Of a DNA stretch of 44,008 bases, positions 7,909-42,947 are shown one piece after another (position 1 is the first letter of the stretch; each line of letters starts with the position of its first letter). The notes beneath the pieces are model-generated. The model searched no databases and was not told where the DNA came from. It was given only the letters and a program-made list of their open reading frames with translations. Location of the stretch: NCBI GenBank assembly GCA_903891365.1, contig CAITEG010000004.1, positions 1-44,008 on the forward strand. Direction: 5' to 3'. Both the position numbers and the translations under genes were made by a program. This stretch comes from an uncultured bacterium (lineage in GTDB: Bacteria; Patescibacteriota; Minisyncoccia; Phycocordibacterales; UBA9973).

Positions 7909-8312
7909 ACAAGTTTGTTATAGTCCTTTCGGAATCTAAGTTGATAAAGCCAGACAGACCATCGACAGGCTGTCAGTTCATCAGGACCGAAGAGATGATG
8001 AGCGAGTTCATGGAAGAGGCTTATAATTGAGCCATCCTTTACGAAGATAAAGTAATCGAATTCACCGACTACATATCTTGTTGGTTCTCCTTCCTTTACG
8101 TAGACTGGTTGGGCGTTATATGCATCAGTGATGATATTTACTAATGCTTGCTGGCAGAATCTTTGGTCTATTCTATTGGGCCAATTTCTGTAGCATCTTC
8201 GTTTCCAGTCACTTATTCTTGTCATTAGACCAATTGGATATATTGGTCTTGGTTCTGCCAAGATTTGCTTCTTAGTCGGATATTTACTTGTATCCCGGGT
8301 CATCGTCGTCAT
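7818..8312 (-). CDS. putative zinc metallopeptidase-like protein (HExxH)
   Basis: FHELAHHLFGPDE contains HExxH and resembles the ImmA/IrrE or SprT-type motif. The start is uncertain: ATGs at 8330, 8312 and 8303, and the track uses a GTG at 8378. Confidence 0.45.
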   Translation of the reverse strand: MTTMTRDTSKYPTKKQILAEPRPIYPIGLMTRISDWKRRCYRNWPNRIDQRFCQQALVNIITDAYNAQPVYVKEGEPTRYVVGEFDYFIFVKDGSIISLFHELAHHLFGPDELTACRWSVWLYQLRFRKDYNKLVWNKHLLVKPLSSKRVVAQSPSHHKVATIV

Positions 8313-10239
8313 AATCCATTTCGTCAGCATAAGCCGGCGAGAGTTTAGCTGCCTTGACAATATGGGCAAGTGTTTCACAACGGGAGCGAAACTTATCCAT
8401 TTCAGTCTTGATGTTATTGATGTGCCATCCTATCTGAAGAGGAAGCCCTTCCTCAGCAGCAATATTAACAACCTTCCTTAGATATTCATCAACACGCATC
8501 TCGGTGGCATTCAGAATTGTGGAACCAACTCCTTCAGCTTCTTCTAGGATTTCGAATGGATCTTTATCATCTCCAGTGTTACTTAGTGCTTCTAGCATTA
8601 ACTCCGCTTCTCCTTCAAGTACGTCTACTGGAGTTTGAACACTAGACACTTCTGTAAATTCAGCGTCGGTGATACGTTCATCATCTCTACCCATGGCTGC
8701 ATCAGCCAGAGCCCGAACTCCCTGAGGCTTATTAATCCTTTCTAGAATAGTTAGTGCATAGGAATCGTTCTTAACTACGGCACCAGCTGGTTTGCTTGGG
8801 AAGGCTTCTTCGATATCCTTGTCGAAGTTTTCGGATATCGCATCATTATTTTCATTGTCACATATTTCTGCATCAGTCTTTGGGTTTGTGAATGCTGCAG
8901 CCAAAGCTAGAACAACTTCACAATAAGTGCAGAATTGAAACACTGGCACATATGCCCCAGCGATCTCGCTCATTCTTACATTAGTGAGCTCCCGCCCCAC
9001 CTTGTCAATATCGTCGAAAGTCTTCCATTTCGAGAGATCAAACTTTTTTTCTTCGAGAGCTTCTTCTAGACATTCATCATAAGATACTTCTTGGGTGACT
9101 AGGCCTATACCTTCTACGAAGAGTTCATTTGCTCTCTTAAGATCTCCCATGCTTATGGCTAGATTGAAATCCTTAATAATTCCTTTCCCTTCTAGGGTTT
9201 CAATAGCTGCATGGTCATTAGAGTCAGTGAATACTTTACCTAGTGGCCCACTCATCATTTGATGAACGATGTGGGACTGAGATACGAATTTATATTCGTC
9301 TTCTGTTTTAGATTTATCTCCTCTATTTGGTAATAGCCACATATTTTTTTCTTTGTTCCACTCGTATCCGGCATCCGTCATTCCTTTCTTTAGATCTGCA
9401 TCAGACACCTTGTTTCTATTGGTTCCAAAGCCTATGCTTCTACCACTATAAGACTCCTGTTTAGCTGGCGGTTCAGGAGTATATTTCATCGTGATAGTCT
9501 TCTTGAGTTTAGTGAACGTTACTAGACCGCCTTCTTTATAGACAGCTTCTAGAACTACCACTTCATCTTTCTCTAATGGTTGACCTAGAGTTTCCTCAGA
9601 AGCGAAAGCCCAGCCAGAGTTAGACTCCCAGATTTTCATACCTGCATATCCATTTGTGCCTAGTAGGATTTGATGGATCTTATCATCTTTTGTTCTAGAT
9701 ATTGCCCAGAAGGTGAATCCTCCTTTGGCACCAATATCAGGAATCTTGCCTTCGAAGAATCTAGCTAGTTCAATAGCGATGGCTTCACTATCATTGAACT
9801 TCATGGTATAACTGGCGCTGTTAGCTGCCCAAGCTTTTCTATATTCTGTTTCATATAGATAGCCAGCTTTCTCGTGAACAGCCTTCAATTCCTCATCATT
9901 ACTGATCACACCATTGTGAGCGATGAGCCATTTATATGTCAACTCTTCATTCTCTATTGCCATTGGATGAGTTTGGCTCATTAGATTATCTGAAGAAGTT
10001 GGCATTCGATGATGGAATAATATGTGACGAGATTGAGGGTCAGTATACATGTCATGAAACATCTTTGCTGCCTCAGTTGCACGATCTACACTTACAATTC
10101 CTTTATCATCTATTTTTACTATACCGAACCCACGAGTACCTCTTCCTTGTTGGTCTTCAAATTGATTTACAACATAGTCGATAGCGCGAGCAGGCGGTAT
10201 CTTTTTGTCTTTACTTACCCATCCGATTAGTCCACACAT
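8284..10239 (-). CDS. class-II (Ntn) glutamine amidotransferase domain fused to an ~400-aa acidic uncharacterised C-terminal region
   Basis: Begins MCGLIGW (catalytic Cys2). Also has RGTRGFGIV, LFHHRMPTSS and AHNGVISN, typical of GATase class II. The remainder has no recognised motif. Confidence 0.7.
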   Translation of the reverse strand: MCGLIGWVSKDKKIPPARAIDYVVNQFEDQQGRGTRGFGIVKIDDKGIVSVDRATEAAKMFHDMYTDPQSRHILFHHRMPTSSDNLMSQTHPMAIENEELTYKWLIAHNGVISNDEELKAVHEKAGYLYETEYRKAWAANSASYTMKFNDSEAIAIELARFFEGKIPDIGAKGGFTFWAISRTKDDKIHQILLGTNGYAGMKIWESNSGWAFASEETLGQPLEKDEVVVLEAVYKEGGLVTFTKLKKTITMKYTPEPPAKQESYSGRSIGFGTNRNKVSDADLKKGMTDAGYEWNKEKNMWLLPNRGDKSKTEDEYKFVSQSHIVHQMMSGPLGKVFTDSNDHAAIETLEGKGIIKDFNLAISMGDLKRANELFVEGIGLVTQEVSYDECLEEALEEKKFDLSKWKTFDDIDKVGRELTNVRMSEIAGAYVPVFQFCTYCEVVLALAAAFTNPKTDAEICDNENNDAISENFDKDIEEAFPSKPAGAVVKNDSYALTILERINKPQGVRALADAAMGRDDERITDAEFTEVSSVQTPVDVLEGEAELMLEALSNTGDDKDPFEILEEAEGVGSTILNATEMRVDEYLRKVVNIAAEEGLPLQIGWHINNIKTEMDKFRSRCETLAHIVKAAKLSPAYADEMDYDDDDPGYK

Positions 10240-10241
10240 AT

Positions 10242-12140
10242 TTAGAATGACGCTTGCGCGTTGTTATGATTAATTGTTCCAATAAGATATGATCTTGCTA
10301 CTGGAGATAATGAGTGGGTGATTCGTCCATTGGATGTATCGCTTAAATATTCTACAAGTTCTCTAGCAACTTCTTCTCGTGCTGCTTGGTCTACATTCCA
10401 ATTCCATCGATCATTATTCTGCATGAGTATAATTATTTTCACGAATGGTGATCCAGAATATGGGGCCATTGCTCTTGATAGATCTCTAATTACACCACTG
10501 ATAGCAGAATCAATAGAGTAGCTTCCAGGATTAGTTTCCATTTCAGCTTGTACAGCATCATTGCTTAGTTGTCTAGGATTGTCAGCTCTAGATTCAGCTC
10601 TCTCTAGTCCTACCTCCATCTCTTCTTCTTTCTTCATAGATTCAAGAAGAGGACTTGGTCCAGGGGATAGAGTTGCTGAGTCTAATGGAATGAATGTTTT
10701 AGGAGACTTTTCAAACTTAAGCACAAGTCTGATTAGGGGCTTAATATCTCCTTTTCTTCTCATTTCATATGGAAGACCAATCATTACTCTTCGGTTATCC
10801 TTGGAGCTGATTAATTTTCCAGTACGAGCATTTAACACTCGACCATACATAGGAACAGCTTCATTTTTGTTTCCTATTCGATCAAACTTACTTGACAAGA
10901 GAGAGAAATCTTCTATTGTGGTTATTATTTCATGACCCGCAATAAAGAGTCCATTTTCATCTCTCATTACAAGAGCGTTCAGACCTTTCTTAAGACCGAA
11001 GAGATAATATTCATGCTGTGGTTTCCATCCAAGCGCGATACACCTCTTAGATAATGCTGTGGCAAATTGTTCAACATTCAGGTCTTCATTCCAAGCGAAC
11101 TGACTCATGTTTCTGATTACTGATTCAGGGAATTTAGAAGTCTTTTCTTCGATCTCTTCATCTTTAAAGAAGGATGTTATAGGGATCTTGGCAGATCCTT
11201 GTGTGAAACCCCAACCTTCATTAATAGAATAATGGGCTTTTACTTTCTCTTCCATTACTCTAGATGGAGACATTATAAGTTCAAGTTCTGCTTTATATTC
11301 AGGATAAGCAGGATGAGCTCGTACGAAGGGACGAATTTTGTCCAGATAAGATTTCTGAATGTTCACATAATTATCTAGAAGAAATGGAAGATACTCCTTC
11401 GCTTGTTTCCGGCTTCTGAACAAGACTGGCCCGACAGGTTTCAAGTTGCCCTTGAGAATGCTGTCCCAACAGATTGCCATATAAGCCAACGTCCCGAGAG
11501 CAATCTTTTCTGTGGTTACCCACTCAGCTCCTGGAGCTCGAACTTCAAGAGTGAATCCATCAGCACCGCTAGGGAATTTGAATCTCGGAGTGTCTATTCT
11601 GAAATCGAATAGCTCACCATAGTGGCCAGATTGGAATCCCTTTCTCAATTGACTTGACAGTTTGTTTTCTCCCATCATAATTAGAATGATGAAAGTTCCT
11701 ACAGCTCGTTCAATAGCTGCCCATTTTTCAGTTTTATTACGCCACATCTGATTGAAGTCTTCTGGAATGGCGAGATGGATATGACCACCAGCACTTGCAG
11801 CAATGGTGAGGGTGGACATGTCTACGAATGGAATCTTATCGGCAGCTTGTTTGAATAGAGATTTCATATTAGCCACAACTTCTCGTGGTGTGCCTGGATC
11901 TGGTCTAAGCTCACCAGTAGCATTATGACCATCCCAACCAATATCTCCTCCAGGAAATGCAAATCCAGCAGGTGTCTTTGCTTCTCCTTTGAAGAAAGTT
12001 GTGAAGATCTCTATTGCACTAATTGGTCGAGAGCCACTCACTACAGTGAACTCAGGGTCAGCGCCCACTTTGAATGGGAATTCATAAGCGGGTTTAACTT
12101 TTGGTTCTTCTACCACAGGCTCAACTGTTGTTTCAGTCAT
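10242..12140 (-). CDS. glutamine-synthetase-fold carboxylate-amine ligase (amidoligase), paralog A, with an ~300-aa C-terminal extension
   Basis: VGADPEF, GELRPDPG, SAGGHIHLA and LEVRAPG match the acidic/His/Arg motif series of the GS/GCS2-fold amidoligases. All four are shared with the next gene. Confidence 0.6.
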   Translation of the reverse strand: MTETTVEPVVEEPKVKPAYEFPFKVGADPEFTVVSGSRPISAIEIFTTFFKGEAKTPAGFAFPGGDIGWDGHNATGELRPDPGTPREVVANMKSLFKQAADKIPFVDMSTLTIAASAGGHIHLAIPEDFNQMWRNKTEKWAAIERAVGTFIILIMMGENKLSSQLRKGFQSGHYGELFDFRIDTPRFKFPSGADGFTLEVRAPGAEWVTTEKIALGTLAYMAICWDSILKGNLKPVGPVLFRSRKQAKEYLPFLLDNYVNIQKSYLDKIRPFVRAHPAYPEYKAELELIMSPSRVMEEKVKAHYSINEGWGFTQGSAKIPITSFFKDEEIEEKTSKFPESVIRNMSQFAWNEDLNVEQFATALSKRCIALGWKPQHEYYLFGLKKGLNALVMRDENGLFIAGHEIITTIEDFSLLSSKFDRIGNKNEAVPMYGRVLNARTGKLISSKDNRRVMIGLPYEMRRKGDIKPLIRLVLKFEKSPKTFIPLDSATLSPGPSPLLESMKKEEEMEVGLERAESRADNPRQLSNDAVQAEMETNPGSYSIDSAISGVIRDLSRAMAPYSGSPFVKIIILMQNNDRWNWNVDQAAREEVARELVEYLSDTSNGRITHSLSPVARSYLIGTINHNNAQASF

Positions 12141-13186
12141 GATTTACGTTCTAGATAAGCTTCAAAACCTTTATCTTCATAGGTGAAACGATAGTTCGAC
12201 CAGTGCTTAAGAGGATCACCTCTGAATGATTTCTTAATACCTTTCTCAATAAACTTTTCAAATGCTGGCATACTTCTGTCGTTCAAACTGTGTCCAGTGA
12301 AATTAGGACACCATTTTATAATGATTGGTTTGATTCTATTGAAGTTAGCCAGCGCTAGGTTAAAGTCATTGTTATTAATTGCGTGAACGATTTCGAGTTC
12401 ATTCACGGCTGCCATCAATTCTTTGCCTGCTTTCTTATTCTCTGCAAAGCCGAGACCTTGGCGACATAGTCCCATAACCATACTCATGAGTGTATAGTTT
12501 TTCAACCAGAAGTTGCCTAGAACTCTATATTCAATACCATGAGGTTGAATACGATATTCTCCTGCGCGCCCATAATACTTTCGTCTCTCGATTTCTCCTT
12601 CATCACGATCGAGAAGTACACAAGTGTTACCAACGATAATATCCAGGATCTTTACAATCTTTTCAGCTTCTTTACCATCTTTAAGCATGTTTATTACACA
12701 TTGTTCTGATGATCCAGGAGATGTTCCTAGATGGATATGACCACCGGCACTTCGATAAAGATATTTACTGGCGTCTGGAAGCTGGGGATAGTTTCCATAT
12801 GCATTTAAGCTAGGAGAACATCCAAAGCGTTTGCTATCTGGACTTAGAGAATCCATTTCCTTTTTGGTTACTTTAACCAAAACATTCCAATTGATGGTGA
12901 TACGTTTACCAGCTATTTGTCTTTGGACTCCTTGGAATAGTTCATGGATTCTATAAGAGAAACTTTGACGACAGCGATTGAAGTATGGATTCAGCTCTGC
13001 TTGAATACCATCTATAATCAATTTACCTCCAGATGTATTTATTCCTTCTTTGGGGAGGATTTTTTCTGCACCTATGATTGAACTTGGATTACCCACTAAG
13101 TTCTTTCTTGCGAAAAAGAACTCAGGATCAGCTCCCCAAGTTGGATGCAGATATTTAATTGTGGGTTTGATTTCTGTTTCTGGCAT
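12137..13186 (-). CDS. glutamine-synthetase-fold carboxylate-amine ligase (amidoligase), paralog B
   Basis: WGADPEF, IQAELNP, SAGGHIHLG and IEYRVLGN. It has an ATGA overlap with paralog A (12137-12140). The start at 13186 (MPETEIKP) was chosen by analogy with paralog A (MTETTVEP). The track uses a TTG at 13234. Confidence 0.6.
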   Translation of the reverse strand: MPETEIKPTIKYLHPTWGADPEFFFARKNLVGNPSSIIGAEKILPKEGINTSGGKLIIDGIQAELNPYFNRCRQSFSYRIHELFQGVQRQIAGKRITINWNVLVKVTKKEMDSLSPDSKRFGCSPSLNAYGNYPQLPDASKYLYRSAGGHIHLGTSPGSSEQCVINMLKDGKEAEKIVKILDIIVGNTCVLLDRDEGEIERRKYYGRAGEYRIQPHGIEYRVLGNFWLKNYTLMSMVMGLCRQGLGFAENKKAGKELMAAVNELEIVHAINNNDFNLALANFNRIKPIIIKWCPNFTGHSLNDRSMPAFEKFIEKGIKKSFRGDPLKHWSNYRFTYEDKGFEAYLERKS

Positions 13187-13373
13187 GTTTAATAATAAAA
13201 CCCCATCATGAAGCGACATCTGGAAACGGGGCAATACATTGCAGGTTATTCTTTACTGGTGAATAACAACCAGTTATACAGTTCTGCTTACCTCTTAGTT
13301 AGGCGAGGATATTGTGGATAGCCATTTCCATGTGTCGCCCCACAATGGGGCAACGAATAAATGACTCAGTAGG

Positions 13374-15979: not shown

Positions 15980-16008
15980 TTGACAGTCCTTCTAATCGCG
16001 CGTAATAT
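15980..16008 (+). promoter_or_regulatory. sigma-70-type promoter giving a leaderless mRNA
   Basis: TTGACA (15980-15985), a 17-bp spacer, TAATAT (16003-16008), 6 nt, then the ATG at 16015. A second TTGACA lies at 15972-15977. Confidence 0.6.
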
Positions 16009-16014
16009 GAAACT

Positions 16015-16818
16015 ATGATCAAAAAGAAACTAGTGGCTAAGCCTGCTAAGCCTAAGGCGAAGCTTAAGCCTAAGGCGAAGCTTAAGCCTAAAGCGAAGCT
16101 TAAGCCTAAGGCGAAGCTTAAGCCTAAGGCGAAGCCTAAGTCTAAGGCGAAGCTTAAGCCTAAGGCGAAGCCTAAGTCTAAAAAGTCTGAGGTCCTCCTC
16201 AATATTGGTTGCGGCATCACCCTCTTTAAAGACTTCATCAATATTGACAAGTACTTTACAGAAGAGCAACTTCGTCAGGGGGCAACGTCTCACACAGGAC
16301 CATGTGCCAACGCTCTCTACCCGCGCGGAGCATCCTTCCTTCAGGCAGACATGCTAGACTTGCCTATAGACGCAAACTCTGTAGACTATATTGAGTCGAT
16401 GGAAGCCCTGGAGCACCTAAAGTTTTGTGACGTAGAAAAAGCTGTAGCCGAAATGTACCGGGTACTAAAACCTGGAGGCAAACTTGTCTTGTTTATTCCC
16501 GACATGGATGATATGTGTCAAGTCTGGACAGAGAGGATCGGTAGTGGGGCACCCTTCGGGCCGGAGGACTTCTTTCAGATGGTTCAGATGTTTTATGGGA
16601 ATCAAAAACATGACGGCGAATATCACAAGTCTTGTTTCAACGAAACCTACATGGGTCTGATGATGCAGGCAATAGGATTCGAAGCGAGGAATATTAGGAT
16701 AGCCCACTGCAGTCATGGTCAGCAGGTACCCAAGATCCGAGGAGCGTCAGCATCCCCCGCGTGGGACAGCAAAGCTGTGCTCATTATAGGGTTCCTACTT
16801 ATAGAGGCCACTAAGTAG
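16015..16818 (+). CDS. class I SAM-dependent methyltransferase with an N-terminal (KPKAKL)n lysine-rich repeat tail
   Basis: Residues 8-57 are KPAKPKAKLKPKAKLKPKAKL...KPKSKK. These are followed by SAM motif I LLNIGCG, then VDYIESMEALEHL and YRVLKPGGKLVLFIP (Methyltransf_11/23-like). No DPPY/NPPY or PCQ DNA-methyltransferase motif was seen. Confidence 0.75.
   Translation: MIKKKLVAKPAKPKAKLKPKAKLKPKAKLKPKAKLKPKAKPKSKAKLKPKAKPKSKKSEVLLNIGCGITLFKDFINIDKYFTEEQLRQGATSHTGPCANALYPRGASFLQADMLDLPIDANSVDYIESMEALEHLKFCDVEKAVAEMYRVLKPGGKLVLFIPDMDDMCQVWTERIGSGAPFGPEDFFQMVQMFYGNQKHDGEYHKSCFNETYMGLMMQAIGFEARNIRIAHCSHGQQVPKIRGASASPAWDSKAVLIIGFLLIEATK
16036..16180 (+). repeat. 18-bp tandem repeat aagcctaaggcgaagctt (about 7 units, degenerate at the ends)
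   Basis: Near-perfect (single-mismatch) units at 16048-16065, 16066-16083, 16084-16101 and 16102-16119. Variant units extend to about 16178. The repeat is in frame and encodes KPKAKL. Confidence 0.9.
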
Positions 16819-16840
16819 GCTCAGTGGCTTGCCGCAGGCT

Positions 16841-17467
16841 ATGACACTCACAACACTCAAATATTTGATGTGGTTTTTAAACGCCTATAGCGACGAGATA
16901 AAGCCAGAGGCTCGCATCGCTGATTATGGTGGAATAGATAATCCTGACACAGTGATTTTTCCCCAGGTTGTTAAGAAAAGTTTGGCAGGTGCGGGCCGAC
17001 TTAATTATCACGCTCTGGATTTTGATAGTGGGGTAGATCTGCGCAAACCCTTACGGGGTCCTAAGTATGACGTTGGTATTTGTATGGATCTGCTTGAGCA
17101 TTGTAGTGATCCCTTTCTTGTGGCACATAATATTCGAGATAGTCTACGGCACAACGCGCTGCTTTTTGTAACCGCACCATTCATATGGGATCCTCATTTT
17201 TTCCCAAAGGACTATTGGCGTTTCACACCGCAGGGGATTGAAGAGCTTTTTAGTGCCGAAGGTGATCCGAAAGCTATGGATGTCCTCGCTCTAGGTATGG
17301 TTCGTGATCCTAACAAGGGAGAATTTTTACAACTTTGTCGCGTAGTTGCAGTCTTTCGAAAAGCAAAAAAGAAAGATCGAAAACGAGATGATGCGGCTCG
17401 TTCTATCTTTCCTCCAGAGTGGGGAGTAAGAGGGTTTGACAAGACAACATTTGGCATGGTACCATAA
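16841..17467 (+). CDS. methyltransferase-fold protein with a degenerate SAM motif I
   Basis: ARIADYGG (degenerate GxGxG), YDVGICMDLLEHCSDP and NALLFVTAPF follow the layout of class I methyltransferases. The ATG is at 16841. The track uses a TTG at 16829. Confidence 0.5.
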   Translation: MTLTTLKYLMWFLNAYSDEIKPEARIADYGGIDNPDTVIFPQVVKKSLAGAGRLNYHALDFDSGVDLRKPLRGPKYDVGICMDLLEHCSDPFLVAHNIRDSLRHNALLFVTAPFIWDPHFFPKDYWRFTPQGIEELFSAEGDPKAMDVLALGMVRDPNKGEFLQLCRVVAVFRKAKKKDRKRDDAARSIFPPEWGVRGFDKTTFGMVP

Positions 17468-17473
17468 AAAGAT

Positions 17474-18460
17474 ATGAATACACCACAAGCAATTTCAAAA
17501 TCAAAACACATAGAAGAGAACGGGGTATGGGGTCCAGACGAATTAGAAGATAAGGTAGTTCGCCCTACACAGTGGGGGTTGGTGCGTCCTGACACATTTA
17601 AAGCCTTCAGTCTCACTCGCAAGAAACTAGCGCCCGGAGCCTATACAATAACGCGTGATAATCAAGATGACCAACCAATTTATTTCCGTAGACAGATAAA
17701 AAGTGACACAGATATGAAGGTTTCTGAGGGTTTGTCAAAACAAATCATAGAGGAAATTACTAACTTCTGGGTTAAGAACGAAACATTTCGTAAAAATGGC
17801 TTTCTCCATTCGCGTGGATACCTTCTATATGGAAGTCAGGGCGTTGGGAAATCGTCTGTAGTGCGACAGATCATGAGTAATGTGATAGAAAATGATGGAA
17901 TAGTTTTCATCTGTGGTAATCCTGCGTTCTTTAACCTTGGATTGAAGGTCTTCCGACAGACTGAACCTGATCGTCCAGTGGTTTGTGTCTTCGAAGACAT
18001 CGACGCCATCATTCGTAAATACGGAGAGGATGAGATACTGTCCATCCTTGACGGTGAAAACCAAATCGATCGTGTGCTTAATATCGCCACCACAAATTAT
18101 CCAGAGAATCTTGATCGGCGGATTATTTCTCGTCCACGTCGTTTTGATCGTGTCTACAAAATAGAATCACCAAGCGAAACTTCTCGTAGAGAATATTTCT
18201 GTGTGAAACTTCCGAAGATGCCTAAGGCGAAACTTGAGACTTGGGTTAAGAAAACAAAAGGACTTACGTTTGCAGGATTGGCAGAGCTTCTCATTAGTAC
18301 ACAATGTCTTGGCAACAAGTTCGATGAAACAATTAAGGTGTTGAAAGATCTTGAAAATGGTCATCCATCATCAGCAGATTTTGGCGGTAGGATCGGATTT
18401 GAAAAAGAGGGAAAAGATAATGACGAAGAGGGATCAAAAGTTGAGTGCATCGAGGACTAG
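17474..18460 (+). CDS. AAA+ ATPase (classical AAA, BCS1-like core) with an ~110-aa unknown N-terminal domain
   Basis: RGYLLYGSQGVGKSS (Walker A), VVCVFEDIDAI (Walker B), ATTNYPENLD (sensor 1), and RPRRFDRV (Arg fingers/SRH). Confidence 0.8.
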   Translation: MNTPQAISKSKHIEENGVWGPDELEDKVVRPTQWGLVRPDTFKAFSLTRKKLAPGAYTITRDNQDDQPIYFRRQIKSDTDMKVSEGLSKQIIEEITNFWVKNETFRKNGFLHSRGYLLYGSQGVGKSSVVRQIMSNVIENDGIVFICGNPAFFNLGLKVFRQTEPDRPVVCVFEDIDAIIRKYGEDEILSILDGENQIDRVLNIATTNYPENLDRRIISRPRRFDRVYKIESPSETSRREYFCVKLPKMPKAKLETWVKKTKGLTFAGLAELLISTQCLGNKFDETIKVLKDLENGHPSSADFGGRIGFEKEGKDNDEEGSKVECIED

Positions 18461-18469
18461 AAAAGTCGT

Positions 18470-18540
18470 TTGACTTATAAAAGTCACTCAATAAATTGAG
18501 TTGACTTATAAAAGTCACTCAATAAATTGAGTTGACTTAT
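18470..18540 (+). repeat. 31-bp tandem repeat, 2 full copies plus a 9-nt partial copy
   Basis: ttgacttataaaagtcactcaataaattgag occurs at 18470-18500 and 18501-18531, then ttgacttat at 18532-18540. Each unit contains the palindromes gactt-ataa-aagtc and ctcaa-taaa-ttgag. Confidence 0.9.
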
Positions 18541-18560
18541 TTGACACTAGGTAGTATCAT
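18532..18560 (+). promoter_or_regulatory. sigma-70-type promoter of the secreted-protein gene
   Basis: TTGACT (18532-18537), a 17-bp spacer, then TATCAT (18555-18560). The -35 is the last partial copy of the 31-bp repeat. Confidence 0.45.
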
Positions 18561-18654: not shown

Positions 18655-21600
18655 ATGTCTAAACTAAAGACATTTGTGACTAGTGCTGCGCTTGCAGTGG
18701 GAGCCTTGGCGTTCGCGTCGAGTGCTTTTGCGGCGGGCCTTACTGGTTCACAGGTCCAGTCAATCCTTTCACTTCTCGCTTCTTTTGGAGCAGATAGTGC
18801 GACGATTGCAAATGTTAGTGCCGCATTAAATGGTACTCCGGTAGTAGTATCGCCCTCTTTCAAGATTGGTGATACAGGACCGGCAGTGGTCGCTCTTCAG
18901 AAACAACTTATTGCAGATGGCTATCTAAAGATTGCTGCTCCAACAGGTTACTACGGAAAGCTCACACAGGCAGCGGTTCTAGCAAAGGCAGCTTCAACTT
19001 CCTCTTCTTCGTTTACTCCAGTAACTATGGTTGGGAATGGATTGAAGGTTGCTATTTCTTCAACTTCTCCTAATGGTACAGTGCTTGTAGCGGGTCAGGG
19101 TATCGGTGATCTTGGGAACTTTGTATTCTCAAATCCTACCGCAACTCCGATTAATGTTACCGGTCTTACCTTCAAGCGCCTAGGAGTCAGCAATGATTCC
19201 ACACTTGTAAACGTGTATCTCTATAATGGAGTAACACGAATCACTGATTCTGCTGGAGTCAGTAACGGACAGTTCTCGTATACTGATCCTACAGCACTCT
19301 TCACAGTGCCTGCAGGCGGTACGTACGTAGCTTCAGTTCGTTCTGATATCGACAGTTCAGCTTCGGGACAGCAAATTGGAGTTTCTCTGGTCTCCGTTTC
19401 TTCAAATGGTACCCTAGATTCTTCCGTAGTCTTCCCGATTTCTTCTAGTTATCAGACTGTGTCGGCAGCCACTCTAGCAGGGGTTGACTTCTCGTCTGTT
19501 AGCCAGTCCACAGCATCTATCTCCCCACAGAGTAATTATCCTCTATGGCAAGAGACAGTCTCTATCAATCAGAACCCAGTTAAGTTGTCTTCACTTAAAT
19601 TGACAAATCTTGGTTCTATTGATTCGAGTTTGGTCCAAAACCTTCGCCTCTATGTAGATGGTGTACAGGTTGGAAGTGCTGCTATTCTCTCTGACAGAAC
19701 AGCAACGTTTGACTTCAGTGCAAATCCTGCGATTCTTAACACTCAGAACCACACAATTAAGGTTGTTGGTGATATTGTTGGAGGATCGTCTCGCACTATC
19801 GAACTTTCGTTGCAGCGTTCTTCAGATGCAATGTTCGTAGACACGCAACTTGGTCAGCCAGTCACGATGACAGTTAATGGTAACGTATTCACTCCTGTGA
19901 ATGGTTCTATTATCACTATCAACGCTGTTACTGGTTCTACAGGTATCAGTGTGTCAATCGATCCTGCTTCACCTAACCAAGATGTCGCCCTAGGCGCGTC
20001 TAGTGTTAAGTGGGCAACGTTCGACGTTCTCGTCTCAGGTGAGAATGTAAAACTAAACTCTCTTAACGTATCGTCAAATGTAGCTCTTGCAAATGGCAAG
20101 ATTTATATTAACGGTAGTCAAGTTGGTTCTACAAAATCACTCGGCACTTCGGCAGTAACATTTAACACCTCGGCAGTTCTACCTGCAGGACAGACTTCTC
20201 ATGTAGAGATCTACGCTGACGCGAAGACTCCAACAGGAAATCTTTCAAACGGTCAGACTGTTATCGTTACATTGAATGCGGGTAGTTCAAATGCTCAAGG
20301 ACAATCGTCTTTGAACACTGCGAATGTTCCTGCTTCCGATACTTCGGGAAATTCAATTAACGTTACAAATTCGTCTCTAAGTGTAACTAGATATTCTGGT
20401 TACGGTAGTCAAACTATTATTCCTGGCTCAGTATCACGCATCGGATCGTTTACGATCTCTGCTGGTTCTACAGAGGGAGTAACTGTGAACACTATTAATC
20501 TTTCGCTTTCGGCTGCGAATGCAGCTTCGATTACGAATCTTACCCTTAAGGATGGTTCGTCTGTCTTGGGTAATGTAGTGACGACGCCTTCGATATCAAG
20601 TTCTTATTCTGTCAACCTAGACATTCTAGCTTCTCAGACAAAGACTATTGATGTTTACGGCAATGTGCTTTCTGGTGCGGCTAACGGCTCTCTAGTAGTG
20701 TCCGTTTCAGTATCAGGAAATGGTGATCAAACTGGCAACACAACTTCATCGTCTGCGGTTTCTCTACAGACAATGACTATTGGTTCCGGTTCACTTAGTG
20801 CTACTGTTGCTGCAGGAGATCCTGTATCAGCAAATATTGTTGCTGGCGCAGCTTCTATTAATGTCGGTCAGTTCGAATTTAATGCAGTCAGTTCTGCATA
20901 CACAATTCAGAATCTCGACATTTCAGTTGCTGGGACCATCAATGATGTTACTGCTGTCACTGTCACTTATCTAGATGCAAATGGTAATACCCAAACATCA
21001 ACACAACCTATCGTAGGAACTGTTGCTTCGTTCTCGGGTCTTAACATTTACGTTCCGGCTAATGATCAGGCAGACGTAACCGTGAGTATAGGAACTCCTA
21101 CAATTGCCTCTGGCGCACAGTCAGGATCAAGCGTAAGTGTTGGACTAGCAAGTTCAAACTTCCGTGCAGTTGATGCTTCCGGTAGATCCATTACAACAGG
21201 ATTTACGAAAGCTGCTGAGGGAACATTCTATGTGTACAAGAGCATCCCAACATTTGCGACGCTCGCAATCACATCGAATATTCCATCTTCAGGGAATCCT
21301 CTCTATCGTTTCAGCGTAACTGCTGATCCGAAGGGTTCTATTGATCTCTCAAAGGTAACATTCAATTTGTCAACGACAAGTGTGTCGGTAACAAATATGT
21401 ATGTTGTTGATGAGGCTTCAGGACTCAGTGTTGGGTCTGTCGGTGCAAATGGCGCAGTAGCCATGACACAACAGATTGGTGCTGGTATGTCTAAGACATA
21501 CGCCCTCTACGGTACAGTAGGAGGCTTCACCACGGGTTCTTCTCTTACAATTAGCCTAGCGCAGGATACGTCTCTTTCCACGACAAATGTTCAGTGGTCA

Positions 21601-21672
21601 GATCGTTCTACTACAGCAAATGGTTATCTGTTAAAGAACTTCACAACAAACGCTACTTCTTACTCGAAGTAG
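18655..21672 (+). CDS. secreted peptidoglycan-binding protein with long Ser/Thr/Val/Asn-rich beta-repeat region (1005 aa)
   Basis: Sec-type signal peptide MSKLKTFVTSAALAVGALAFASSAFA/AG. PG_binding_1-like segment GDTGPAVVALQKQLIADGYL...TGYYGKLTQAAV. Recurring ~100-aa modules follow (e.g. NLRLYVDGVQVGS, NGKIYINGSQVGS, NLTLKDGSSVLGN). Confidence 0.7.
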   Translation: MSKLKTFVTSAALAVGALAFASSAFAAGLTGSQVQSILSLLASFGADSATIANVSAALNGTPVVVSPSFKIGDTGPAVVALQKQLIADGYLKIAAPTGYYGKLTQAAVLAKAASTSSSSFTPVTMVGNGLKVAISSTSPNGTVLVAGQGIGDLGNFVFSNPTATPINVTGLTFKRLGVSNDSTLVNVYLYNGVTRITDSAGVSNGQFSYTDPTALFTVPAGGTYVASVRSDIDSSASGQQIGVSLVSVSSNGTLDSSVVFPISSSYQTVSAATLAGVDFSSVSQSTASISPQSNYPLWQETVSINQNPVKLSSLKLTNLGSIDSSLVQNLRLYVDGVQVGSAAILSDRTATFDFSANPAILNTQNHTIKVVGDIVGGSSRTIELSLQRSSDAMFVDTQLGQPVTMTVNGNVFTPVNGSIITINAVTGSTGISVSIDPASPNQDVALGASSVKWATFDVLVSGENVKLNSLNVSSNVALANGKIYINGSQVGSTKSLGTSAVTFNTSAVLPAGQTSHVEIYADAKTPTGNLSNGQTVIVTLNAGSSNAQGQSSLNTANVPASDTSGNSINVTNSSLSVTRYSGYGSQTIIPGSVSRIGSFTISAGSTEGVTVNTINLSLSAANAASITNLTLKDGSSVLGNVVTTPSISSSYSVNLDILASQTKTIDVYGNVLSGAANGSLVVSVSVSGNGDQTGNTTSSSAVSLQTMTIGSGSLSATVAAGDPVSANIVAGAASINVGQFEFNAVSSAYTIQNLDISVAGTINDVTAVTVTYLDANGNTQTSTQPIVGTVASFSGLNIYVPANDQADVTVSIGTPTIASGAQSGSSVSVGLASSNFRAVDASGRSITTGFTKAAEGTFYVYKSIPTFATLAITSNIPSSGNPLYRFSVTADPKGSIDLSKVTFNLSTTSVSVTNMYVVDEASGLSVGSVGANGAVAMTQQIGAGMSKTYALYGTVGGFTTGSSLTISLAQDTSLSTTNVQWSDRSTTANGYLLKNFTTNATSYSK

Positions 21673-21820: not shown

Positions 21821-22357
21821 ATGTTCTTTAAAACCAAAAATCGTATTGAGGATGATTTAGATCTTTATAAGAATCGTCGTAAACTTGAAATCGACGAGGA
21901 GCTCTCTGAATGGAGACGCTCTCAGAAGAATCGTGCCGTAGATGAGATTATGGCTCATACGGAGGAAGCACGCATTAAGAAGCAGAAGATGTTCAAGGAA
22001 ACCCAGGCAGCTGAGGTTGAGCATGAACAGAAGAAGGCTGCTTATGCTGCAGACCTAGCCACGATAGAGGCTAATATTGCTACCAAGAAAGCTCTTGCAA
22101 CACAGGTTGACACGGATTTTGAATCTCGTGGACTCCTACGCGATCGAGCATGTAAGGCTGAGAAGGAAAAGGCAGATGCGATTATCACTGAAAAGGATAA
22201 GCACATTGCCCATCTTGAAGCACACCTTAAGACTGTTTCAGAACAGAATGTAGGTCTTCTTGCAACTCTCGCAAAATCACTTGGTGATGCTGCAGCTAAA
22301 GACGCTGTAACAAAGGTGGTTGGATTCGGACCATCAAGCGAAGCCAAGAAAGTATAG
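21821..22357 (+). CDS. hypothetical coiled-coil protein (178 aa)
   Basis: ORF track. Ala/Lys/Glu-rich helical composition. Confidence 0.5.
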   Translation: MFFKTKNRIEDDLDLYKNRRKLEIDEELSEWRRSQKNRAVDEIMAHTEEARIKKQKMFKETQAAEVEHEQKKAAYAADLATIEANIATKKALATQVDTDFESRGLLRDRACKAEKEKADAIITEKDKHIAHLEAHLKTVSEQNVGLLATLAKSLGDAAAKDAVTKVVGFGPSSEAKKV

Positions 22358-22372
22358 TTTGTCCGTAGAAAT

Positions 22373-22391
22373 CTGGGGGTATTGCCCCCAG
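22373..22391 (+). other. GC hairpin without a U-tract
   Basis: ctggggg (22373-22379), loop tattg, cccccag (22385-22391). Confidence 0.4.
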
Positions 22392-22409
22392 TCCTGTGCG
22401 GATAAAAAA

Positions 22410-22862
22410 ATGAAACCTAAAATAACAATCATAGATGTAGACGGAACGGTCGCCAAAATCGACCATCGTCTTTATCTTATAAAAAAGACTCCTAAGGATT
22501 GGGCAGCCTTTTATGGTGAGTCGTACAAAGATGAACCTCTTGTTGAAAATATGGCAATGATTAAAGAACATCTTTCTTCAACAGAATCTATTCCATTTTT
22601 TGTGACTGGACGTTCTGATGTTGCAAGAGAAAGAACACACTCTTGGTTGAAGGAACATTTTGATGAAGTTCCTCCAGAGCGTCTCTTTATGCGCAAAGAA
22701 GGTGATACAAGAGAAGACTTTGTTGTTAAAAAAGAAATTCATGACAATCACTTGACGGAATATGAAATAATTCGCGTGTATGAAGACCGTCCTCAAGTTA
22801 TTAGAATGTGGCAGGATCTTGGTTATGAAGTGATCGATGTTGGTCCAGGGTACGAGTTTTAG
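22410..22862 (+). CDS. HAD-superfamily phosphatase (Pnk-phosphatase / nucleotidase-like)
   Basis: KITIIDVDGTVA (DxDGT motif I), FFVTGRSD (motif II), VKKEI and VYEDRPQVIRMW (motifs III/IV). The ATG at 22410 follows the previous gene's stop. The track's longer form overlaps that gene. Confidence 0.7.
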   Translation: MKPKITIIDVDGTVAKIDHRLYLIKKTPKDWAAFYGESYKDEPLVENMAMIKEHLSSTESIPFFVTGRSDVARERTHSWLKEHFDEVPPERLFMRKEGDTREDFVVKKEIHDNHLTEYEIIRVYEDRPQVIRMWQDLGYEVIDVGPGYEF

Positions 22863-22863
22863 T

Positions 22864-22892
22864 TTGACAAATTCATTTGTTATTGTTAACAT
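22864..22892 (+). promoter_or_regulatory. sigma-70-type promoter giving a leaderless mRNA
   Basis: TTGACA (22864-22869), a 17-bp spacer, TAACAT (22887-22892), 6 nt, then the ATG at 22899. Confidence 0.6.
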
Positions 22893-22898
22893 GTATTT

Positions 22899-23294
22899 AT
22901 GAGGTATTATTTTCGTGATAAAAGTAAGGAATTAGGACTCCTAACACAAGAGGAATTTTTTAGAGATGTTGCTTTTGCTACTCGTTATCTTGATCGTGAG
23001 GATGTAAGAACAGTGTATAAAGCAATACTAGCCATTGTGTGGAGAGAAATAAAAGCAAAAGGGACTATCAGACTCCCTTCTTTGTGTGATATATACCTAA
23101 GACAACGCCCCACAATGAGGTGTGCTGGAAAATATATTCCAGGGACCGTGGTTGTCCAGGCCCATCATAACTTATCATTTAGTACACTAGAATCAGTACG
23201 TGTGTACGTAAAGAAGTTAGAACAGGAGAATCCAGGCAAACTGTTCGACCCAGCCAAACGCATAGAAAGAGGAGGGGACATCACACAACTGTGA
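22899..23294 (+). CDS. HU/IHF-like DNA-binding protein (divergent)
   Basis: GTIRLPSLCDIYLRQRPTMRCAGKYIPGTVVVQAHHNLSFSTLESV aligns by eye with the HU beta-arm region (vqL.GFGtF.v..RaaR.GRNP.TGe.i.I.a...v.F). A helical N-terminal half precedes it. Confidence 0.5.
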   Translation: MRYYFRDKSKELGLLTQEEFFRDVAFATRYLDREDVRTVYKAILAIVWREIKAKGTIRLPSLCDIYLRQRPTMRCAGKYIPGTVVVQAHHNLSFSTLESVRVYVKKLEQENPGKLFDPAKRIERGGDITQL

Positions 23295-39028: not shown

Positions 39029-39295
39029 ATGGATCCTGCAACTCAATGCGATCATGATGTACTGATAGAACTTCGCACTGAGATGCGGATGATCCGACAG
39101 GATATAAAAGAACTAAAGGATGGTCTCTCCACCCGCGTGAATGATCACGAGAGTCGTATTCGTTCTCTTGAAACTCACGTTGGGGATGCTATTGCAGAAA
39201 GAAAAGGTTCAGATCGGGCGACTCGTTTGTATGGTGCAATTTTAATATTCGTAGTGGGAGTAGTTGAGTTCTTTATTAGCCATTATTATAGATAG
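39029..39295 (+). CDS. XhlA-like lysis-associated membrane protein (88 aa)
   Basis: N-terminal coiled coil (IELRTEMRMIRQDIKELKD...RIRSLE) and a C-terminal TM helix LYGAILIFVVGVVEFFI. It lies directly upstream of the endolysin, as in PBSX-type xhlA cassettes. Confidence 0.45.
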   Translation: MDPATQCDHDVLIELRTEMRMIRQDIKELKDGLSTRVNDHESRIRSLETHVGDAIAERKGSDRATRLYGAILIFVVGVVEFFISHYYR

Positions 39296-39299
39296 TTTT

Positions 39300-40376
39300 A
39301 TGGATAAACAAATTCCAGCGCTTGGAGCAGTTCCAAGCCCTCATGATTATAGGGATGATTATGCTAAGGTGGCGCTAGGAGCCCCTCAGACGGCTCCATT
39401 TGCCCTTCCAGCGAGTTTTGAGACCTCTATGCCTGGTCCAGTACTTATGCAGGCGCAAATCCCCGCCTGTGTGTCACACTCAGTAGCACAGGTACTCCAA
39501 CTCTACTGGTATAAAAAGACTGGTAAACTTATAGACTTTTCTCCTCGCTTCTTGGATGTACTGGCGAAGCGTTTTGACGGACAACCTTTAGATGGGGGGA
39601 CTATTCCACGCCTTGTTTTCAAACTTGCCGTAAAATACGGGTGTGCAACAACAGCAACTGTTCCAAATGATACAAGTTTATCTCTTGCACAATATCGAAA
39701 TGATTCTATTTTGACACCAGCAGCTTTTACAGAAGCGCTTCAACACAAAATTCCTGGATTCATCCGTGTTCCAGACAGCTTTGATGCAGTACGCCAAGCA
39801 GTGTATTTTCATGGTGCGGTATCAACTTTAATGGAAATTGGAAAAGAATGGTGGACAAACACTAGTGGAACAAGTTCATGGGTTGATTCAGAAATTGATC
39901 CATTAAGAATTCCTGTAGTTCAAGTTGGAGGTCATCAGATCGTAGTTAAAGGTTGGACTGATAATGATTTCAACACATTACGTAATTCATGGAGTGATAA
40001 GTGGGCAAATATTGGTGAGGCTAAATATGATTTCGCTAATTGGGCTCCGTATATTATAGAAGGTTGGACTGTAGCAGAAATTCCAGAAGATGTAAAAGAT
40101 TTTATGGCGACTCTTCCTGCTCCTACAGATTTCCATTACACCTGGAATACAAATATGAGTCTTGGGCAAACAAATGAGGACATTAAGTTCATGCAAATAG
40201 CCCTAATGATTCTTGGTTTCATTTCTCCGTTTGATCCTAGTCAACTTGGAATCTATGGACCTAAGACTGCGGTAGGTGTTTTGGCTTACCAGAAGTCAAA
40301 AAAGATAAATCCACCTTCAGCAAATAATGTTGGACCAATGACACGTGCTGCTTTGAACGCAGACTTCTCTATATAG
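39300..40376 (+). CDS. endolysin: papain-like (C1-type) cysteine peptidase domain + C-terminal PG_binding_1 domain
   Basis: Q-x5-C (QAQIPACVSHS), GGHQIVVKGW and LRNSWSDKWANIG reproduce the papain Gln/Cys/His/Asn-Trp signature. The C-terminus NEDIKFMQIALMILGF...GIYGPKTAVGVLAYQ...GPMTRAAL is PG_binding_1-like. I prefer the ATG at 39300, just after the upstream stop. Confidence 0.7.
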   Translation: MDKQIPALGAVPSPHDYRDDYAKVALGAPQTAPFALPASFETSMPGPVLMQAQIPACVSHSVAQVLQLYWYKKTGKLIDFSPRFLDVLAKRFDGQPLDGGTIPRLVFKLAVKYGCATTATVPNDTSLSLAQYRNDSILTPAAFTEALQHKIPGFIRVPDSFDAVRQAVYFHGAVSTLMEIGKEWWTNTSGTSSWVDSEIDPLRIPVVQVGGHQIVVKGWTDNDFNTLRNSWSDKWANIGEAKYDFANWAPYIIEGWTVAEIPEDVKDFMATLPAPTDFHYTWNTNMSLGQTNEDIKFMQIALMILGFISPFDPSQLGIYGPKTAVGVLAYQKSKKINPPSANNVGPMTRAALNADFSI

Positions 40377-41323: not shown

Positions 41324-42004
41324 ATGGCAAAAGCAAAGACAAAAATAGTAAAGGCAAAGACTAAAAAGAAATCTATAGATCAATTATTAAAAGAAAGTGC
41401 TATTGTCAAACTAGACCTCGCATGTGGCGCCAATAAACAGGGAAAAGACTTTATAGGGATGGATATGTTCCCTTATCCGGGAGTTGATATCGTTCATAAT
41501 GCACTAAACTTCCCATGGCCATTGCCAGACAAGAGTGTGAATATGATTGTGGCCTCTCACTTCTTGGAGCACGTATCTGCGAGTGGAATAGACCCGCACC
41601 TTTCTGACCTTATAGATCTCTTGATTAAAAATAAGATTCTTAAGGAAAAAGAAATAACAGATCTTATGGGTGAACACCGAATATTTAGTAACTTCATTCG
41701 TCTTCTTGACGAATGTTGGCGTGTTCTTAAGGTTGGTGGACAAATGGCCTTTGTAGGTCCTTATTACCAGTCCATAGGAGCAGCACAGGATCCTACACAT
41801 GTGAAACCCTTGTGCGAAGCTTCTATGTTGTATTTTGATCCTGAGGAGTGTGGTGGTTTGTTCTGGAATTTCTACAAACCAAAACCTTGGAAACTTGAAA
41901 TGCAGTCCTTTGAAGGAAGTGGAAATATTGAAGTCATTATAAGCAAACGTGATATAAAACCGTATGAAGAAAGAATCAAAAGTCATCTCGAAGTTGAAAA
42001 CTAA
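41324..42004 (+). CDS. class I SAM-dependent methyltransferase with a Lys-rich N-terminus
   Basis: MAKAKTKIVKAKTKKKS, then motif I VKLDLACGAN, NMIVASHFLEHV and WRVLKVGGQMAFVGPY. Confidence 0.7.
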   Translation: MAKAKTKIVKAKTKKKSIDQLLKESAIVKLDLACGANKQGKDFIGMDMFPYPGVDIVHNALNFPWPLPDKSVNMIVASHFLEHVSASGIDPHLSDLIDLLIKNKILKEKEITDLMGEHRIFSNFIRLLDECWRVLKVGGQMAFVGPYYQSIGAAQDPTHVKPLCEASMLYFDPEECGGLFWNFYKPKPWKLEMQSFEGSGNIEVIISKRDIKPYEERIKSHLEVEN

Positions 42005-42947
42005 AACTAAAAAGACCGTCAAGATTAAGACTAAAAAGTCAGTGACTAAGAAGGAACCCAAGAAACCATCAATTCCTTCAGCCATTCCTCTAGGACAGAT
42101 AATGCAAGGGAAATATAACTTTACTATTCCTGGCATCAAATTAGCAAAAGATTCAGCTCTTCTAGGGAAAAGAGTTCTTATCTTTACTCCTACAATAGGT
42201 CTAGTTAGAATGGAGTGGGTTTCGGCCCGCTATTCTCAGTTGGTTCCAACCAATTGGTCATTTGCAAATATGTTGCAATTTATCTCTGCGCAAATTCCAA
42301 TTGGATATCAAATTCCTGATGCTCAGAATCTAATGGTTAAAAAGGTTGTTGAAGAGGGTTATGAATGGGTTCTATTAATTGAAGATGACAATATTTTGCC
42401 ACCAGATGCATTTATTCGATTCAATGAGTATATAAATGAAGCAACTATTCCAATGGTTTCGGGGTTGTACTTCGTGAAATCTACTTTTGCAGAACCAATT
42501 CTCTATCGTGGTCGTGGTAACTCCCATTTCCGTGACTGGAAATTGGGGGATCGTGTATGGTGTGACGGTGTACCGACAGGCGCACTTCTCATCCACTCAT
42601 CACTTCTGAAAGCAGCATGGAAAGAGTCTGAAGAGTACATGATAATGGGTGAAAAAACTCGTCGTGTGTTTGAACAACCAAATAGGATCTGGTACGACGA
42701 GGTGTCAGGTGGTATAATTGGAAAAGGCGGTACAACCGATCTCAATTGGTGTAGTCGTCTTATGGAAGATGGATTGTTTGAAAAGGCCGGTTGGCCTAAG
42801 TTTCAAAAGATGCAGTATCCTTTCTTAGTGGATACAAGGATCTTCGTTAGACATATCGGAAAGGATGGTGTGCAGTGGCCAATAGCGGTCCCAGCTCGCT
42901 TTGTTCCTGACGATAAAAATTATAAAGGCATTGATATAATCGATTAA
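41964..42947 (+). CDS. GT-A fold glycosyltransferase-like protein, possibly with a Lys-rich N-terminus
   Basis: RVLIFTPTIG..., the DxD-like VLLIEDDNILPPDAF, and GT2-like length. The start is uncertain. The ATG at 41964 overlaps the methyltransferase gene by 41 nt and adds KLKTKTKKTVKIKTKKSVTKKEPKKP. The next ATG is at 42102. Confidence 0.5.
   Translation: MKKESKVISKLKTKTKKTVKIKTKKSVTKKEPKKPSIPSAIPLGQIMQGKYNFTIPGIKLAKDSALLGKRVLIFTPTIGLVRMEWVSARYSQLVPTNWSFANMLQFISAQIPIGYQIPDAQNLMVKKVVEEGYEWVLLIEDDNILPPDAFIRFNEYINEATIPMVSGLYFVKSTFAEPILYRGRGNSHFRDWKLGDRVWCDGVPTGALLIHSSLLKAAWKESEEYMIMGEKTRRVFEQPNRIWYDEVSGGIIGKGGTTDLNWCSRLMEDGLFEKAGWPKFQKMQYPFLVDTRIFVRHIGKDGVQWPIAVPARFVPDDKNYKGIDIID

Follow-up and report, generated by a model that had tools for sequence, protein, structure and literature searches.

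The stretch of DNA examined here (the window, meaning all 44,008 nucleotides (nt) of contig CAITEG010000004.1, assembly GCA_903891365.1) is phage DNA that makes up an entire contig, C4, of a metagenome-assembled genome of 533 kb in 70 contigs, which is 78% complete. The phage sequence is organized in two divergent arms: the leftward arm encodes a primase-helicase, an amidoligase/glutaminase set and an SNF2 helicase, while the rightward arm starts at position 16015 and carries the terminase, portal and major head protein genes along its run. Three closely spaced genes stand at the head of the rightward arm (16,015 to 18,460). They code for a methyltransferase (open reading frame 1, ORF1), a second protein with a methyltransferase fold (ORF2) and an AAA ATPase of the Bcs1/YjoB type. 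The original prediction, made from the sequence without database searches, took them for one cassette in which an unfoldase is coupled to a methyltransferase and to a degenerate, non-catalytic methyltransferase-like partner. We lean towards a different view, in which the stretch holds two independent functions lying side by side in one phage clade, a methyltransferase pair and a Bcs1/YjoB-type ATPase, and not a three-part machine. The features of the stretch are the following (aa, amino acids; SAM, S-adenosylmethionine).

15980..16008, plus strand: sigma-70-type promoter TTGACA-17-TAATAT, its -10 ending 6 nt before the ORF1 ATG
16015..16818, plus strand: ORF1, 267 aa, class I SAM-dependent methyltransferase, Methyltransf_11 type
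16047..16181, plus strand: 18-nt tandem repeat, 7.5 copies with 93% matches, encoding the KPKAKL tail of ORF1
16841..17467, plus strand: ORF2, 208 aa, compact class I methyltransferase-fold protein (alternative start at 16829)
17436..17465, plus strand: second promoter of the leaderless type, TTGACA-18-TACCAT with TG before the -10, within the 3′ end of ORF2
17474..18460, plus strand: AAA ATPase, 328 aa, Bcs1/YjoB type, after a gap of 6 nt behind ORF2
18470..18540, plus strand: 31-nt tandem repeat TTGACTTATAAAAGTCACTCAATAAATTGAG, 2.3 copies with 100% matches, after the ATPase stop codon
18532..18560, plus strand: promoter-like site behind the 31-nt repeat; the block 18470..18560 parts the ATPase from the next gene
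18655-21672: gene following the ATPase; its 1005-aa product has a signal peptide, a PG_binding_1 domain and long repeats rich in Ser/Thr

The layout stands as originally described: the three plus-strand reading frames with their gaps of 22 and 6 nt, the promoter ahead of ORF1, the repeat and promoter block downstream, and the motifs IADYGG in ORF2 and RGYLLYGSQGVGKSS, FEDIDA and RPRRFDR in the ATPase are all there. We place the start of ORF2 at the ATG at 16841, which gives 208 aa and the 22-nt gap, because its homologues all open with 'MT..SL'. Since the -10 element of the first promoter ends 6 nt before the ORF1 ATG, the ORF1 transcript would be leaderless. The original prediction overlooked a second promoter, which belongs to the ATPase (17436-17465) and whose -10 hexamer stops 8 nt short of the ATPase ATG. 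Four sites in the window (at 15980, 17436, 22864 and 29154) match the pattern TTGACA-N16-18-TAnnAT-N5-9-ATG where 0.04 would be expected, all of them at ORF starts; judged from these promoter-like signals, a leaderless promoter design recurs in this phage. The locus of the nearest relative (L012) also has four matches to the strict pattern, one of them before ORF1 and another directly before the ATPase ATG (8700-8737).

The 31-nt repeat behind the ATPase includes TTGACT and a small palindrome, TGACTTATAAAAGTCA, and three TTGACAAAAGTCAT-like copies stand just upstream of the ATPase in L012 (8672-8712). The repeat of the window and the copies of L012 may be operator or promoter arrays. In L012, too, the ATPase is followed by the gene for the 1005-aa protein (52% identity), and a 1002-aa gene takes this place in L109, another related locus.

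Distribution of the three gene families

Conservation of the gene neighbourhood had been proposed as a check of the predicted cassette. Besides the window, the three genes stand together in three loci, L011, L012 and L109, all from the window's own clade and with ATPases 64-74% identical to that of the window; in L011 and L109 an extra gene is inserted within the triad. Elsewhere the families go separate ways. In nine IMG/VR loci with relatives of the ATPase (42-56% identity), neither ORF1 nor ORF2 has a relative within 6 kb, and two further loci, L110 and L111, also encode ATPase relatives without relatives of ORF1 or ORF2. The ATPase neighbours in these eleven loci are genes for GroES, GroEL, ThyX, an IMP dehydrogenase/GMP reductase family protein, dUTPase, dCTP deaminase, thymidylate synthase, RecA and an epimerase. 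Conversely, ORF2 relatives are present and the ATPase absent in ten viral loci, and at none of 79 viral loci was the ATPase found within 7 kb of the ORF1 relative. Whole-record searches of genomes for the three families, run with working positive controls, gave the following results.

G003 (184 kb, 100% complete): ATPase present; ORF1 and ORF2 families absent
G005 (178 kb, 90% complete): ATPase present; ORF1 and ORF2 families absent
G006 (99 kb, 100% complete): ORF2 family only; ATPase and ORF1 family absent
G007 (102 kb, 100% complete): ORF1 and ORF2 families present, about 10 kb apart; ATPase absent
G001 (74% complete, so that an absence weighs less): ATPase and ORF1 family present, about 26 kb apart; ORF2 family absent

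Such independent assortment speaks against an obligate three-part machine, and so does the promoter that the ATPase has to itself. The proposed coupling of an unfoldase to the methyltransferases is thus not upheld, and what remains of the original finding carries modest weight. A literature search for a phage module combining methyltransferases with an AAA protein returned nothing bearing on the triad.

Several observations nevertheless weigh against a separation into two functions. The order of the triad is kept in the four clade members and is followed, wherever the contig extends far enough, by a gene for a secreted protein of roughly 1000 aa, and a clade-specific functional link among the triad genes is possible. 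Loci of related phages, moreover, are not independent observations. Neither L011 nor L109 shows the strict pattern of the ATPase promoter ahead of its ATPase; L001, L002 and L111 do not show it there either, and in L110 the sole match to the pattern stands before another gene. Finally, as there is no terminator between ORF2 and the ATPase gene, read-through co-transcription is likely too.

Within the clade, the triad could then be a working unit in which the ATPase holds or remodels a client, for example the 1005-aa peptidoglycan-binding protein, and the methyltransferases modify that client or its glycans. The tight spacing of the genes, with no terminator in between, would suit such a unit, as would the order methyltransferase, methyltransferase-like protein, ATPase and roughly 1000-aa protein shared by the window, L012 and L109, the first three members of which are repeated in L011. 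We hold it to be distinctly unlikely, however, since the four loci represent one clade in which the common order may be plain synteny, extra genes break the triad in two of them, each family is found without the others in complete genomes, and the ATPase has a promoter of its own. In L034, L035 and L037, furthermore, ORF1 is coupled to relatives of two other genes of the window (at 41324 and 41964, described below).

The Bcs1/YjoB-type ATPase

The third gene product matches the Pfam AAA family at 2.5e-12 (47.8 bits; cut-off 21.2). Its Walker A motif GSQGVGKS occupies residues 120-127, and among 27 aligned sequences G120, G123, G125 and K126 are invariant, as are F173, E174, D175, I176 and D177 of the Walker B motif VCVFEDID, the sensor-1 motif ATTN (N208) and RPRRFDR (R220-R226), the latter in the second region of homology with its arginine fingers. 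The region of the last two motifs aligns with the p97 segment 'ATNRP..ID..L.RPGR.D'. The segment from the P-loop to Walker B is short and is without the aromatic pore-loop stretch present in the aligned p97 segment and usual in threading unfoldases, and the wording leading into the P-loop, RGYLLYG..G.GKSS, is one that we take to be close to Bcs1.

When single-stretch matches were compared in a profile search of the PDB, YjoB (111.5 bits) ranked above Bcs1 (74 bits) and a lone p97 fragment (71 bits). An AlphaFold2 model of the ATPase (predicted local distance difference test, pLDDT, 78) was also searched with Foldseek, and ranks 1 to 14 were all YjoB or Bcs1 chains (4e-15 to 2e-12), followed by p97, PAN and FtsH; the best values were 4e-15 for YjoB (26% identity) and about 1e-13 for Bcs1. 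The assignment to a BCS1-like type was therefore sound, and the ED of Walker B agrees with it. Two other affiliations were tried and rejected. Cdc48/p97 is not the closest family, as single p97 domains score below YjoB and about equal to Bcs1; p97 owes its first place in the raw PDB lists solely to the joint score of its two domains. Among models of anti-phage defence ATPases (PADLOC and NCBIfam) there were partial, generic AAA matches only, with 36.5 bits over about 70 residues for IetA and 24.9 bits (cut-off 510) for IteA.

In the model, residues 1-30 (MNTPQAISKSKHIEENGVWGPDELEDKVVR) are disordered and are followed by a beta-sheet N-domain at about 31-75 (four strands at 33-73, pLDDT 68-91), the AAA module at about 85-300 and an acidic C-terminal tail. 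The first 30 residues are hydrophilic and hold no N-terminal transmembrane anchor, as judged without a dedicated transmembrane predictor, and the ATPase has no match to Pfam BCS1_N. On this model it is a soluble, short Bcs1/YjoB-type protein whose plan is nearer to that of YjoB.

The family is very large, with 1231 database proteins at E 0.001, which come from metagenomic contigs, many of them viral. Each of the best 120 listed relatives is more than 50% identical to the ATPase; most have 303-366 aa and two about 570 aa, and none of the listed relatives bears an informative name. Among viruses, the structure matches are AAA proteins without names from crAss-like, jumbo and giant viruses. Apart from Xanthomonas phage phiXF1, a protein search of GenBank phages returned only three huge phages, all of them unannotated, and there was no characterised relative among the matches. 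In phiXF1, which is cultured, the AAA domain of YjoB/Bcs1 type is the C-terminal part of a protein of 1338 aa that goes by the annotation 'putative ATPase YjoB' (L108; PP475461.1, 8245-12261), and this protein may be a tractable relative of the ATPase. With more than 1200 conserved and uncharacterised members, the family offers an entry point to the role of Bcs1-like chaperones in phages.

The ATPase has chaperonin genes for neighbours in some of its relatives. A GroES gene (Cpn10) lies upstream of it in L001 (5099-6900), which also has a relative of a GroEL-like protein that we ascribe to the phage of the window; a GroEL gene (Cpn60) lies directly downstream in L002 (5962-8556), and Cpn10 is found about 1 kb upstream in L110 (3888-5999).

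The GroEL-like gene of the window's phage (5511-7103) is on a second contig, C39 (20.3 kb). Positions 1-141 of C39 are the reverse complement of positions 1-141 of the window, and this overlap unites the two halves of one SNF2 helicase gene; because the 141-nt end overlap is exact, we take the phage to extend into C39. That contig also encodes a histidine phosphatase, HNH proteins, an NTP_transferase and probably a ribonucleotide reductase, as read from its sequence. A further contig, C11 (SbcD, NinG, SbcC), looks like part of the same phage.

Because relatives of the ATPase adjoin GroES and GroEL genes and the phage has a GroEL-like gene elsewhere, the context of the ATPase is likely to be the folding or assembly of phage proteins. 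Such neighbours, frequent as they are, were seen in 3 of the 11 ATPase loci outside the triad clade, which tempers this point. By analogy with YjoB and Bcs1, the ATPase is most likely an ATP-driven chaperone; it would act as a ring that holds or moves folded or partly folded clients, and it could be transcribed as a unit of its own from the leaderless promoter at 17436.

The methyltransferase pair and its neighbourhoods

ORF1 is a clear match to Methyltransf_11 (PF08241, 3.7e-13, 50.4 bits, cut-off 21.2) and also exceeds the cut-off of PF13649 (40.8 bits against 27). Residues L62, N63, G65 and G67 of its motif I, LNIGCG, are invariant in the family alignment. By these matches ORF1 is a Methyltransf_11-type enzyme, and probably an active one. 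Its N-terminal tail is rich in lysine, with KPKAKL repeats over residues about 8-58. Lysine-rich tails of varying length and sequence are found in the closest homologues, and distant homologues are without them. A database variant of the protein (P0088, 231 aa) has 36 tail residues fewer; the copy number of the 18-nt repeat thus appears variable, which could reflect population variation or assembly collapse.

The second protein had been read as degenerate, on account of its IADYGG loop, and was suggested to be a non-catalytic partner or one with an altered cofactor. Its family of at least 87 proteins does not bear out the degenerate, non-catalytic reading. Across 23 diverse aligned members D28, G30, G31, D60, D66, D83, E86, H87, W116, H119, D124 and R127 are invariant. 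The motif I is unusual yet fixed (D-x-G-G), the UbiG-like block GICMDLLEH is invariant, and the protein ends in a basic C-terminal extension. ORF2 stays below the Pfam thresholds (best PF08242, 22.3 bits, cut-off 30) and its NCBIfam matches are partial, but the AlphaFold2 model is confident (pLDDT 88, predicted template modelling score 0.87), and all of the top 50 Foldseek matches have the SAM-methyltransferase fold: 48 are methyltransferases, among them OvoA/OvoM, TehB, NodS and UbiG, with a template modelling (TM) score of about 0.5, and the others are RdmB and SpnF. In our reading of the model, D60 lies just past the second strand and D83 just past the fourth, the usual cofactor-contacting acidic positions of the fold.

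A catalytically dead ORF2, serving ORF1 as a structural or regulatory partner, would account for the non-canonical motif I (DYGG, then I/T-D/E-N), which in the window is followed by a 4-residue insertion after the loop and has Ile where most relatives have Thr; the sub-threshold Pfam matches and the adjacency of ORF1 and ORF2 relatives in several lineages could be taken in the same sense. We find this very unlikely. The loop and the polar residues D28, D60, D66, D83, E86, H87, H119, D124 and R127 are fixed in the pattern of a working active site and not of decay, the placement of D60 and D83 agrees with cofactor contact, and the complete genome G006 has an ORF2 relative without any relative of ORF1. 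The same conservation led us to reject ORF2 as a decayed gene. The simplest reading of alignment and model is that of a working enzyme with an unusual glycine loop, and the family deserves annotation as a probable enzyme, not as a pseudo-enzyme.

As to what the pair might act on, the neighbourhoods of its relatives link it to genes for sugar nucleotides and glycosyl transfer. In L016, a distant locus, the relatives of ORF1 and ORF2 lie side by side, with 4-nt overlaps, and are flanked by an RmlD-like gene and an NTP_transferase, and the two are adjacent or within a few kb of each other in L040, L096 and L106. The ORF2 relative is flanked by an NTP_transferase and a GT2 gene in L018, and in L023, where an RmlD-like gene is close by, it precedes two glycosyltransferase-like genes of the TOD1/MUCI70 type. 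Of the 79 loci with an ORF1 relative, about 18 contain GT2, TOD1, epimerase or RmlD genes, and some ORFs match both ORF1 and GT2. The NTP_transferase of C39, a sugar-1-phosphate nucleotidyltransferase (PF00483, 2e-41), shares 51.5% identity with the NTP_transferase that adjoins the ORF2 relative of L016. Two further genes of the window belong in this context.

41324..42004, plus strand: third methyltransferase, 226 aa, Methyltransf_11-like, with a lysine-rich N-terminus
41964..42947, plus strand: 327-aa protein with a lysine-rich N-tail, its gene overlapping the previous one

The first of these matches PF08241 at 7e-05 and the methyltransferase family phrog_6636 at 6e-08. The second, from its AQN...EWxxLIEDDN segment, is possibly a GT-A-type glycosyltransferase. 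It had no significant match in sequence and profile searches of Pfam, PHROG and the PDB or in comparisons with profiles of phage GT2- and TOD1-type proteins, and hhalign aligned its family with phage GT2 over the DxD region only (E 0.11, probability 0.5%). Relatives of both genes accompany ORF1 elsewhere: in L034, L035 and L037 the ORF1 relative is sandwiched, ends overlapping, between a relative of the 41324 gene (before) and one of the 41964 gene (after). The 41964 relatives beside ORF1 relatives are 46-52% identical, and in these three loci they are without the lysine tail. Among the 37 window proteins of at least 100 aa, ORF1 and the 41964 and 41324 proteins have the most basic N-terminal 40 residues, in a ranking made post hoc, which suggests that the basic tails are a common anchoring device.

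We propose that ORF1 and ORF2, transcribed as one unit from the leaderless promoter at 15980, would be two different, probably active class I methyltransferases and part of a modification toolkit dispersed over the phage, which would also include the 41324-42004 methyltransferase, the possible glycosyltransferase at 41964-42947 and the sugar-1-phosphate nucleotidyltransferase of C39. The pair may carry out sequential SAM-dependent methylation of a sugar, either as a nucleoside diphosphate (NDP)-sugar or as an already transferred glycan, while the lysine-rich tails of ORF1 and of the 41324 and 41964 proteins could tether the enzymes to a common polyanionic surface. A virion protein, an envelope polymer or the DNA would be candidates for the final acceptor. 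The neighbourhoods would in this way point to methylation of phage glycans.

This assignment of a sugar is drawn from gene neighbourhoods, and these are not uniform. No glycosyltransferase was identified at significance in the window. One lineage of phages of roughly 100 kb merely has its ORF2 relative behind RecA, and DNA methyltransferases surround the ORF2 relative in L010 and L027; these contexts would also suit a nucleic-acid target. ORF1 and ORF2 might accordingly serve in DNA hypermodification, yielding a modified base or a DNA-linked sugar, or in RNA methylation, with the lysine tails as anchors to DNA or RNA, a reading that we consider unlikely but take seriously. ORF2 relatives occur in replication and recombination modules (RecA, SbcD, RuvC, DnaG) and beside N6_N4 DNA methyltransferases; the tails of ORF1 and of the 41324 and 41964 proteins resemble those of histone H1; the phage also encodes an amidoligase, a glutaminase and a PNKP-type phosphatase; and ORF1 weakly matches a PHROG annotated as tRNA methyltransferase (4.9e-05). 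However, neither protein matches a DNA methyltransferase family, and among solved structures they come nearest to methyltransferases of small molecules and sugars. It is with NTP_transferase, RmlD-like and glycosyltransferase genes that they are coupled most tightly, through overlapping frames, and the RecA adjacency comes from one related phage group. It would be more speculative still, and in our view a long shot, to see in the tails the mark of a modification line anchored by them to a polyanion, notably the phage DNA (as in a glycosyl-plus-methyl hypermodification), or of enzymes packaged with the DNA, the ATPase having been recruited for assembly or delivery.

Some other features of the phage may be recorded here. 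The leftward arm encodes, at 8284-13234, two paralogues of the phiEco32-type COOH-NH2 ligase and a glutamine amidotransferase-like protein, a set kept in L001, L012 and L013; a literature search on this ligase found nothing bearing on the triad. The segments 22320-23294 and 39264-40376 encode a PNKP-type HAD phosphatase, by a weak match an HU-like DNA-binding protein, and a probable lysin in which a papain-family peptidase is joined to a PG_binding_1 domain. The phage is mid-sized and not jumbo. A blastn search with the 2.4-kb stretch found no match among GenBank phages. The contigs of its relatives bear labels of the candidate phyla radiation, one of them that of Candidatus Dojkabacteria at NCBI, and to our knowledge almost nothing is known about phages with relatives so labelled.

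Comparison with known systems

In fold and in the arrangement of their motifs, ORF1 and ORF2 resemble N-, C- and O-methyltransferases of NDP-sugars and other class I methyltransferases of small molecules (AtmM, OvoM, UbiG, NodS, TehB), and the GICMDLLEH block of ORF2 aligns with UbiG chains. The identities are 10-17%, the TM scores are about 0.5 and no equivalog model is reached, a distance at which the substrate is not readable from the likeness.

In gene content, the closest parallel to the methyltransferase side is offered by Cluster O mycobacteriophages such as Corndog, which have O-methyltransferase and glycosyltransferase genes among their structural genes; for Corndog a methyl and glycan modification of the capsid has been suggested (PMC4351075). 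Class I methyltransferases together with glycosyltransferases (here in the relatives), situated in or heading the structural arm, are common to both. In the window, unlike in Corndog, the two methyltransferases are about 25 kb away from the candidate, as yet unproven glycosyltransferase. Corndog also encodes an AAA ATPase, which is unrelated and lies elsewhere in its genome (PMC4351075).

The original prediction knew of no described phage module with this composition; BCS1-like ATPases as such had, however, already been reported from phages, as Iyer et al. 2021 (PMC7824862) found BCS1 orthologues in jumbo phages and proposed a role in membrane-proximal head assembly. With mitochondrial Bcs1 (PDB 6SH3, 6UKS, 9GSN) the ATPase of the window shares membership of the classical AAA clade, the ED of Walker B and the short stretch between Walker A and Walker B. 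It differs from Bcs1 in having no N-terminal transmembrane helix and no Pfam BCS1_N match, and its N-domain is far smaller than those of both Bcs1 and YjoB.

According to Kwon et al. 2022 (PMC9565160), YjoB is structurally closest to Bcs1 and Bcs1 to YjoB, ED in place of DE in Walker B is peculiar to these two, and YjoB is confined to the Bacillales. The substrate-specific AAA chaperone YjoB of B. subtilis (PDB 7W42/7W46) is the best solved relative of our ATPase both by profile and by fold. Each has one AAA module behind an N-domain that is beta-rich (in the phage protein, according to the model), has ED in Walker B and is soluble without a membrane anchor. The N-domain of the phage protein has about 45 structured residues, however, as against 159 in YjoB, and shows no sequence similarity to it, and whereas YjoB is described as confined to the Bacillales, the phage family comprises more than 1200 proteins of about 310-350 aa each.

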